Source: Girardia tigrina (lineage: Eukaryota). From it: a DNA stretch of 59,975 nucleotides. The position numbers and the translations under genes are program-made. Position 1 is the stretch's first letter, and the number at the start of each line of letters is the position of its first letter. Positions 3,474-5,384 of this stretch are shown piece after piece. The notes under the pieces are model-generated. The model did no database searches. It was not told the DNA's origin and saw only the letters and a list, made by a program, of their open reading frames with translations. The DNA is taken from positions 1 to 59,975 of the forward strand of contig MQRK01245331.1 of assembly GCA_001938485.1 (NCBI GenBank), given 5' to 3'.

Positions 3474-3634
3474 TGTAATGATTTAATTTATATACGATTT
3501 AATACCAAAAAAAATTAAATCGATTTACATATTGACAAAAATGAAATGTTAAATTGTTAATTGTTAAATATATTTTGGAAATATTATTCTGTTTTTTTTA
3601 TTTCAAAAAGTGAAGACATATTCGGTTCTTCACA
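3474..3634 (+). repeat. 5' LTR (161 bp)
   Basis: tgtaatg...cttcaca; matches the 3' copy apart from one poly-A length difference seen by eye. Confidence 0.9.
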
Positions 3635-4101
3635 NNNNNNNNNNNNNNNNNNNNNNNNNNNNNNNNNNNNNNTCCATTAAAAAAGAAAAGTTCTTCAAAA
3701 AGAAATTACAATCAGTTAACCCAGGAAGTATTATCCGCATATCAAGATCAACAAGATAATTTATCGCAGTTGAACATAAAATACAATTTTCTATTAAACG
3801 CTATGGAAAGACTGCTTTTTGATGTACAAAAAAATGTTGAATACTCTTTATTGGCATTGGGAATTTCTAAAACTATAAAGAAAGTGAAGCATAACAAGAT
3901 CAATCAAATAAATCAGCTCAATTCTTTTTCTCACGTATCAATACCGAAAATTNNNNNNNNNNNNNNNNNNNNNNNNNNNNNNNNNNNNNNNNNNNNNNNN
4001 NNNNNNNNNNNNNNNNNNNNNNNNNNNNNNNNNNNNNNNNNNNNNNNNNNNNNNNNNNNNNNNNNNNNNNNNNNNNNNNNNNNNNNNNNNNNNNNNNNNN
4101 N

Positions 4102-4469
4102 ATTTGTGACTTTTGAAAATGAAGAAATTGCTGAAAATCTCACCAAGAATGAATCTGAAACATTGATCTTTAAAGAGAGAAAATTAAACATTAAACAAGC
4201 TGTAAGAAAGAAACATTTATACCCTCGACAAGAAATTTCTGGAACAGTTTCATATAATGGACCAGTTCCATATGCTTTGCAAAATGGATCATTTTTATGT
4301 CAGGTTCCTGTGCAACATTATTCAGCTTTAACAGTGTCGCCTCCACAATATGCAACTATGATGTTACCTCAATCGACCACAACGATGTATTTATCGCAAC
4401 CTCAGTACGTTCATCAAATTCCCGCTGCCGTAATTCCTAACCCTAATTATGCACAACAAGTGGCATCTC
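4102..4469 (+). pseudogene. boule: boule/DAZ-family RRM C-terminal half plus P/Q/Y-rich tail, inside the LTR element
   Basis: FVTFENEEIAENL..LIFKERKLNIKQAVRKK resembles the DAZ/BOULE RNP1 to KLNIxxAxRK signature, followed by YALQNGSF and a PQY-rich region. The frame is open and there is no intron in 368 bp. N gaps flank both sides. Confidence 0.7.
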
Positions 4470-5222
4470 NNNNNNNNNNNNNNNNNNNNNNNNNNNNNNN
4501 NNNNNNNNNNNNNNNNNNNNNNNNNNNNNNNNNNNNNNNNNNNNNNNNNNNNNNNNNNNNNNNNNNNNNNNNNNNNNNNNNNNNNNNNNNNNNNNNNNNN
4601 NNNNNNNNNNNNNNNNNNNNNNNNNNNNNNNNNNNNNNNNNNNNNNNNNNNNNNNNNNNNNNNNNNNNNNNNNNNNNNNNNNNNNNNNNNNNNNNNNNNN
4701 NNNNNNNNNNNNNNNNNNNNNNNNNNNNNNNNNNNNNNNNNNNNNNNNNNNNNNNNNNNNNNNNNNNNNNNNNNNNNNNNNNNNNNNNNNNNNNNNNNNN
4801 NNNNNNNNNNNNNNNNNNNNNNNNNTATCATCCATTTATAAAAAAACAAAATCACGTTAACAACATCACTTCCGTAGTTCAAATTAAGAACATCAACAAA
4901 TTGTTAACTGAGGAAATCAATGAAACATTTACAAATACTTTCTCCGACTTCAGAGCTTTAGTCAGAGATAACATAACTGGCAGATTCGACGGACCATACA
5001 AAATTGTGAAAAATCAAAAAAATTCTTTCCTTTTGATCATAAATGGCATCGAAACAATTGTAAATCAGAAACGAATCAGATTTTGTGCAAAAAAANNNNN
5101 NNNNNGAAATTGATTTCACACATTTAAATAACGAATTCCGTAACAAAATCAAATCAAGATTCGAACATAACTTTCAAATTGTTTGAAACAACGTAACGCT
5201 CCACTTACAAAAGGGGGGCTTA

Positions 5223-5384
5223 TGTAATGATTTAATTTATATACGATTTAATACCAAAAAAAAATTAAATCGATTTACATATTGACAAAAATGAAATGTT
5301 AAATTGTTAATTGTTAAATATATTTTGGAAATATTATTCTGTTTTTTTTATTTCAAAAAGTGAAGACATATTCGGTTCTTCACA
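5223..5384 (+). repeat. 3' LTR (162 bp)
   Basis: Preceded by a PPT and followed by the TSD AACAC. Confidence 0.9.

Follow-up and report, generated by a model that had tools for sequence, protein, structure and literature searches.

Among described systems the closest are the LTR-mediated retrocopies of metazoans, in which, as here, pieces of mRNA replace part of the interior of an LTR element (PMC5131818). Two-parent chimeras, further non-autonomous cycles and sense orientation are reported there and in-frame ORFs are common, all of which is matched by the element described below; the retrocopies of that report are young and mostly decaying, whereas the present capture is old, is found in at least 150 places and in several subfamilies, and has both of its captured domains apparently under selection. 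Maize Bs1 and the plant TRIMs (PMC5131818, PMC4717578) are likewise small and non-autonomous, and carry fragments, free of introns, that come from one to three genes of their host. As described, TRIMs are plant elements, non-coding and below about 1.5 kb with their cargo, whereas the present element measures 1.7-2.0 kb and, set against the 'no coding capacity' of the TRIM definition (PMC4717578), has a long ORF (464 codons in copy L051, 542 in copy L004) that ends in an integrase tail. For Pxyfem of Plutella xylostella, LTR template switching is reported to have taken up the spliced mRNA of a reproductive regulator, in multiple copies, as here; those are 11 W-linked tandem copies without intact LTRs that act through small RNAs (PMC9674220), whereas the present copies are dispersed, have LTRs and TSDs, and bear signs of amino-acid selection. 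Burro, from the planarians, the animal group to which the host of the present element also belongs, and AlkB-Gypsy of orchids are Gypsy lineages that similarly keep host-like regulatory or RNA-acting domains (PMC6431247, PMC9289625), but they are 25-30 kb long, Burro with its own pol, and the present element is 2 kb long, is without RT or integrase core, and has donor genes that can be identified in the same genome. Finally, Turmoil-1 of C. elegans is an animal transposon that acquired an RRM together with part of another gene, again as here, but its cargo lies in inverted terminal repeats (PMC2572040), and that of the present LTR retroelement in a fusion ORF that looks translated.

The copy from which the analysis started lies in a stretch of 59,975 nucleotides of Girardia tigrina DNA (contig MQRK01245331.1 of assembly GCA_001938485.1), which as a whole is called the window. 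A sequence-only reading had proposed a recently inserted mini-LTR retroelement on the strength of near-identical LTRs of 161 and 162 bp, an AACAC TSD and a PPT, and all of these are confirmed in the window sequence (Table 1). The LTR pair is 99.4% identical, the sole difference being one A within a poly-A run, and the chance of a 5/5 TSD match at local composition is 0.002. On these LTRs the recent date stands for the insertion of the window copy; it does not stand for the capture, which is old and reaches back through several subfamilies. The interior pieces are free of stops, as had been seen, and all three sequenced pieces moreover share a common frame. The window PBS and start codon fall inside the first N gap, and both were read from other copies.

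Table 1. Features of the element copy and of its surroundings in the window, followed by features at other loci (positions there are those of the locus named)
Feature	Position	Strand	Remarks
HSP90 fragment	2618..2920	-	isolated; PF00183 1.9e-13; 550 bp from element
TSD, left copy	3469..3473	+	5 bp, AACAC
5' LTR	3474..3634	+	TG...CA, 161 bp
N gap	3635..3672	.	38 bp; other copies: tRNA-Leu primer-binding site (PBS) and ATG here
Captured host cut/Cux coding-exon piece	3688..3941	+	in frame, heptad-patterned helix, ~80 codons
Captured spliced boule1: RRM and P/Q/Y tail	3944..4469	+	3953-4101 = N
N gap	4470..4825	.	other copies: remaining boule1 tail (to host exon I) and low-complexity spacer
ORF end: Gypsy integrase C-terminal GPY / SH3-like domain	4826..5186	+	
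GPY, inside integrase tail	4991..4999		
N gap, inside integrase tail	5096..5105		10 N
Stop codon, inside integrase tail	5184..5186		
PPT (polypurine tract)	5209..5218	+	
3' LTR	5223..5384	+	162 bp
TSD, right copy	5385..5389	+	AACAC
Open frame	5989..7389	-	466 codons; no Pfam match; ends 600 bp from 3' LTR
LDLa/EGF exon	10176..10568	-	
Argonaute-like exons	22297..47692	+	over 25 kb
ArgoN match	22297..22608	+	weak
Mos1-like mariner	25834..26475		between Argonaute-like exons
ODR4-like exon	29211..29627		between Argonaute-like exons
zf-CCHC Gag remnant	38950..39896	-	between Argonaute-like exons
Piwi match	47327..47689	+	4.7e-15
Mini-element of wider family	L026:5734-7832		
Mini-element of wider family	L029:1153-3282		
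Mini-element of wider family	L031:1198-3824		
Mini-element of wider family	L034:1177-3710		
Antisense tRNA-Leu-like sequence	L074:208-255		directly joined to boule exon G
Antisense tRNA-Leu-like sequence	L114:800-821		
Antisense tRNA-Leu-like sequence	L116:430-451		

At 7 of the first 20 loci (L004, L011, L013, L014, L017, L018 and L020) the element is free of N and has its parts in the same order as the window, and the first two window gaps (38 and 149 N) are exactly as long as the corresponding stretches of these copies; the third has 356 N where the natural length is 467 bp. The identical order and the matching spacing rule out mis-scaffolding of the boule piece, which truly lies between the LTRs, as the sequence-only reading had supposed. 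The gap-free layout runs from the LTR through a tRNA-Leu primer site, a single ORF of about 540 codons and a PPT to the second LTR, and in L004 the ORF begins directly past the primer site. Three parts are fused in this ORF: about 80 codons of a host cut/Cux exon, spliced boule1 with the complete RRM and the tail, and the C-terminal domain of a Gypsy integrase. The chimeric frame with an intronless boule that had been proposed is thereby borne out, with a second host part added to it. The cut part meets boule1 in frame at an Asn codon (AAT) common to both genes, a point at which copies now differ. RT, RNase H and integrase core are absent from the full L004 ORF by Pfam search, in which the RRM-type matches are the only ones of note, in agreement with their absence from the earlier description. 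The whole frame is open in 1 of 17 near gap-free complete copies of a filtered set, and L051, from outside that filter, is open as well. By sequence, the element is a non-autonomous Ty3/Gypsy-derived mini-LTR retrotransposon that carries a putative Cut-Boule fusion frame.

The assignment to BOULE, when put to HMM search, fails for the window fragment by itself, which has no Pfam RRM match and no PDB match, and holds for a gap-free copy (RRM_1, 1.6e-15), which is 78% identical to S. mediterranea Boule1. Because the gap-free copy has this RRM, and because the window boule part matches the host boule1 exons at 82% of nucleotides (E 5e-106), the window fragment can be identified as Boule. The element RRM is closest to Boule/DAZL and derives from a boule gene, DAZL being the best single-domain PDB match. 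Host boule1 is one locus by degenerate-pattern search and agrees with Smed Boule1 at 52 of 53 residues in the N-terminal exon and at 31 of 31 in the RRM exon, which marks the host as a Schmidtea-like planarian; its exons have GT-AG ends and are joined without differences by an RNA contig, the long intron being uncovered. Element copies are about 80% identical to spliced boule1, and the capture has one 5' start point, with 57 loci beginning at one identical host base and the 5' junction common to all subfamilies, and several end points among the copies. The intron loss that had been expected on comparison with the host gene is evident: 407 of 408 copy-junction checks at the 8 boule1 junctions find no inserted bases, so that up to 8 introns are lost, and the sequenced boule1 part of the window alone spans 4 host splice junctions.

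Element copies also contain a 19-nt boule1 micro-exon that is missing from the database Boule1 entry. That entry (P0007, Smed Boule1, 154 aa) skips the micro-exon (G000:C226319:14374-14392) and runs out of frame; with the micro-exon in place, as in the element and in the RNA contig of the host, the Boule1 protein is much longer. Within the element RRM the RNP aromatics F47, F89 and F92 are invariant among copies; the lysine K74, common to the Boule proteins of the host, Smed and abalone, has given way to N in all 52 element copies scored, and this substitution may have changed or weakened RNA binding. GTT occurs 30 times in the element where 26 are expected, which is no enrichment.

The open frame at 3674-3952, which the sequence-only reading had left as unknown, is now traced to the host gene cut. 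Its captured segment corresponds to bases 6-259 of an AG/GT-bounded exon of 580 nt (G000:C228891) at a single-copy host locus, with 88% nucleotide identity (E 1e-90), and further downstream three CUT repeats and a match to a homeodomain follow in the host gene. RNA contigs, which have loose ends, run from the captured segment on into the host cut exon, and the exon is spliced; since the captured piece lies within this single exon, intron loss cannot be assessed for the cut part. Among 1.84 billion proteins the N-terminal frame matched four only, one of which is a CUT-domain protein. We had considered the frame a Gag remnant, Pfam and the atlas having shown nothing, and dropped this idea on finding the cut exon. 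The captured segment is identical to a diverged cut protein (P0011) at 44 of 45 residues, the remainder of the exon at 86 of 108 (P=0.003), and the 70 kb around the host cut locus contain nothing else of the element; both observations point to transfer from host to element and disfavour exonisation of the element into cut. The segment is a host-conserved helix with a heptad pattern; among 119 distant Cut proteins none matches it detectably.

Searches of the genome yielded 337 candidates with the boule-like piece at the DNA level (40 scored at 94-100%), 573 with the RRM (of which at least 150 scored as intronless matches in continuous frames, E at most 3e-26), 522 with the Cut piece and 1,895 with the integrase tail, counts that are not copy numbers, as twin contigs inflate them and the best-matching candidates only were scored. 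TG..CA ends are present in 28 of 36 LTR pairs, and among these 28 there are 18 perfect 5-bp TSDs and 4 with one mismatch; LTR identity across pairs is 81-100%, with a median of 97.6. The RRM matches and the 22 TSDs support the mobile multi-copy family that had been suspected. A tree of 61 copies, which leaves out five rearranged loci and loci with less than 450 nt of cargo, resolves subfamilies A (including the window copy), B1 and B2 and older lineages. The capture is old, because the RRM has a dS of 0.39-0.91 between host and element. At least four different 3' modules are read in frame after the Boule tail, and subfamilies that have diverged far more in their boule part still resemble one another at 90-97% in the Cut piece. 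In L106, L107 and L108 the whole RRM is deleted in frame, and the Cut piece and the Boule tail are kept. Contigs from four RNA or RNA-like runs contain pieces of the element; they carry no strand or level, and they hint at transcription, although a multi-copy element can surface from trace DNA. Host contigs in runs labelled as other organisms are only about 1% different from this genome, and thus give no sign of a spread to other species.

The PBS complements the 3' end of the tRNA-Leu(CAG) genes of this genome, over 12-13 nt in most copies and over 18 nt in 5. Antisense tRNA-Leu-like sequence extends beyond the primer site by about 30 nt at three loci (Table 1), and possibly reflects RT read-through of the primer; 3 loci were checked among 39 pattern matches, and ARAGORN found no tRNA gene in L114 and L116. 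The Gypsy GPY/F module was rightly named in the sequence-only reading: it can be aligned with the integrase tails of elements that bear RT (best E 6e-5), is placed by the atlas in MLVIN_C (MLV integrase C-terminal clusters) at 0.92, and has a structure model (pLDDT 77) that Foldseek matches to the HIV-1 integrase CTD (E 2.4e-4). A database search for longer homologues of this tail found none. Gypsy elements of the genome that bear RT, RNaseH and integrase, and which may belong to the Mag/C clade, have the same PBS, a C[FW][YF]H..C..C Gag motif, a DUF7041 Gag and a GPY tail. Of the 20 integrase-match loci examined (out of 23,053 first-look candidates), many have the PBS and the GPY tail in common with the element but none has its LTR, and likeness to the LTRs of candidate helpers extends to short AT-rich matches at most.

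Beside the boule-bearing element there is a wider family of mini-LTR elements of 1.8-2.6 kb (Table 1), with one ORF that comprises a coiled coil, a CWYH-type motif, a low-complexity spacer and the integrase tail. These have neither Gag capsid nor pol, and dN is below dS in their tails between families. Matches of about 59% to the integrase tail, once considered as autonomous partners, turned out to be other mini-elements. The CWYH-type Gag motif is found in the sister mini-families and in the RT-bearing elements with DUF7041 Gag, and in the sister mini-elements the motif, C[WF][YF]H..C..C, occupies the slot where the RRM sits. In a boule-free form, type C (L045, L050, L054, L055 and L092 among 9 loci), the Cut piece is joined to the CWYH-type motif. 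We rejected type C as the pre-capture parent, its Cut piece being nested inside the boule-bearing lineages, and read it as a later in-frame swap of the RRM for a Gag-type motif in one lineage.

The dN/dS comparison among copies, which the sequence-only reading had put forward as a check, gave values below 1 in the RRM. Between subfamilies A and B1 the RRM has 26 synonymous and 17 non-synonymous differences and a dN/dS of 0.14-0.19 (column-by-column counts, one twin dropped), and the Boule tail about 25 and 64, with a dN/dS of 0.83-1.06. Among 56 copies, RRM variants present in at least 5 copies are 28 synonymous to 20 non-synonymous, against 35 to 91 non-synonymous or stop for singletons (P=3.5e-4), and the same comparison in the Boule tail finds no difference (P=0.42); these counts are of element copies only, with RRM-less, partial and twin copies left out. 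In the Cut piece (72 copies) the widespread variants are 14:15 and the singletons 19:103 (P=3.6e-4). The 0-fold/4-fold ratio on internal branches is 0.37 for the RRM (bootstrap 0.21-0.64, with no more than 32 four-fold sites behind the test) and for the tail 0.74 (0.52-1.04), and on tips it is 0.72 and 1.09, respectively. Indels tell a similar tale: the frame is kept by 5 of the 6 that are found in at least 3 copies and by 18 of the 70 singletons (P=0.009). The integrase tail has a dN/dS of 0.18-0.79 in all 21 pairs, and is under selection in the boule-free sister families too. A stricter, lineage-specific count is weaker (8:8 against 30:97, P=0.035), and on subfamily A's own branch, with 6 synonymous and 6 non-synonymous changes, selection is weaker as well. 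These patterns indicate purifying selection on the RRM and on the Cut piece, and none is seen in the Boule tail.

Selection at the amino-acid level favours a role for the protein over a purely small-RNA role, and, as it falls on branches that left many copies, the simplest reading would be that the protein helped the RNA encoding it. We give a probability of roughly 0.55 to the reading that the chimeric protein binds RNA of the element that encodes it and promotes the copying of this RNA by helper Gypsy elements. The capture would have come about by RT template switching on co-packaged mRNAs, with RT, integrase and capsid provided in trans by RT-bearing elements that have the same primer site. 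In the protein, the Cut helix would serve as an oligomeriser, the RRM as an RNA binder, and the integrase tail as a docking or nucleic-acid module. The whole would amount to a mini-Gag rebuilt from host parts for the element's benefit, which would act preferentially in cis, and probably in germ cells, the place in which boule1 mRNA would be open to capture. Such a host-built mini-Gag is favoured because the layout of helix, RNA-binding module, spacer and integrase tail parallels that of the sister mini-elements. More tentatively, the mini-Gag may be built of interchangeable parts, one lineage having swapped a viral coiled coil and zinc knuckle for the Cut helix and the Boule RRM; it might thereby use a germline translational regulator for translation and packaging of its RNA in meiotic cells, perhaps in competition with host Boule1 and Cut. 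The RRM is not needed in cis, because RRM-less relatives have multiplied (L106-L108, the 9 type C loci and L040).

Selection on an intact RRM would also be expected of a germline manipulator or a host-useful paralogue, which would act in trans on host Boule targets or on Cut, as a competitor or a dominant negative, and of which a few source loci would be retained for this effect and go on spawning copies. The host-conserved heptad helix of the Cut piece could pair with host Cut, and the meiotic role of Smed-boule1, which regulates meiosis according to PMC6225667 in its summary of Iyer 2016, fits as well. We nevertheless consider this explanation rather unlikely: evolution of the Boule tail is neutral, selection on the integrase tail extends to sister families that have no boule, subfamilies succeeded one another with no single fixed locus persisting, and a purely trans benefit would be hard to select in a multi-copy family. 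A protein role is dispensed with altogether if the cargo is a neutral passenger, a hitch-hiking LTR retrocopy whose frame is kept for RNA stability and whose signal of selection comes from re-capture of, or conversion by, host mRNA. Most copies are indeed broken, RRM-less versions have spread, modules recombine freely, as the uniform Cut piece beside diverged boule parts attests, and young LTR retrocopies are often in frame merely through youth, as reported by Tan 2016 (PMC5131818). Keeping a frame, however, cannot explain an amino-acid deficit that is limited to the folded parts, and the elements are distant from the host and not fresh copies of it. Re-capture from host mRNA could mimic selection, but codon patterns lend it little support: 8 RRM codons set the host apart from every element group, and no more than 2, both synonymous, unite it with subfamily A alone. 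We therefore regard a neutral passenger as unlikely.

Copies might instead feed piRNA or siRNA pathways that tune boule1 or cut, a role compatible with one for the protein. There is precedent in Plutella, where LTR-made PxyMasc retrocopies are described as silencing their parent (PMC9674220), and planarian LTR elements are described as heavily piRNA-targeted (PMC8532177); in the present element, 2-10% of the 30-nt windows differ from host boule1 by no more than 2 mismatches. Yet synonymous drift away from the host with amino acids kept is the opposite of selection for base-pairing, the longest perfect host match is 19-27 nt in the 8 copies checked, and the cargo of the copies examined runs in sense with LTR and PBS, and we hold a small-RNA source to be improbable. 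Binding of its own RNA by the chimeric protein, to the benefit of copying by helper elements, is the reading that we prefer.

LTR gene capture itself is known (Bs1, Tan 2016); the present results suggest that an old, amplified capture with selected host domains is new as far as searched. A literature search returned nothing on LTR elements with boule or cut in their interior, 'cut' not being among its search terms, and repeat libraries (Repbase, Schmidtea) may list the element without its cargo. By term look-up, Steiner 2016 mentions no copies and 'boule' does not occur in Ivankovic 2024 or Li 2021. With at least 150 copies at 80-90% identity to boule1 and cut, two planarian genes under study, the family could interfere with probes and RNAi triggers and mislead the mapping of reads and the building of gene models, and other mini-element families might carry other host cargo. 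The element provides an animal case in which captured host domains are seemingly kept by selection within a still-mobile element, rather than lost to decay or taken into domestication, and the question of whether captured genes help a transposon can now be put to the test in a model animal for which RNAi and germline markers exist.
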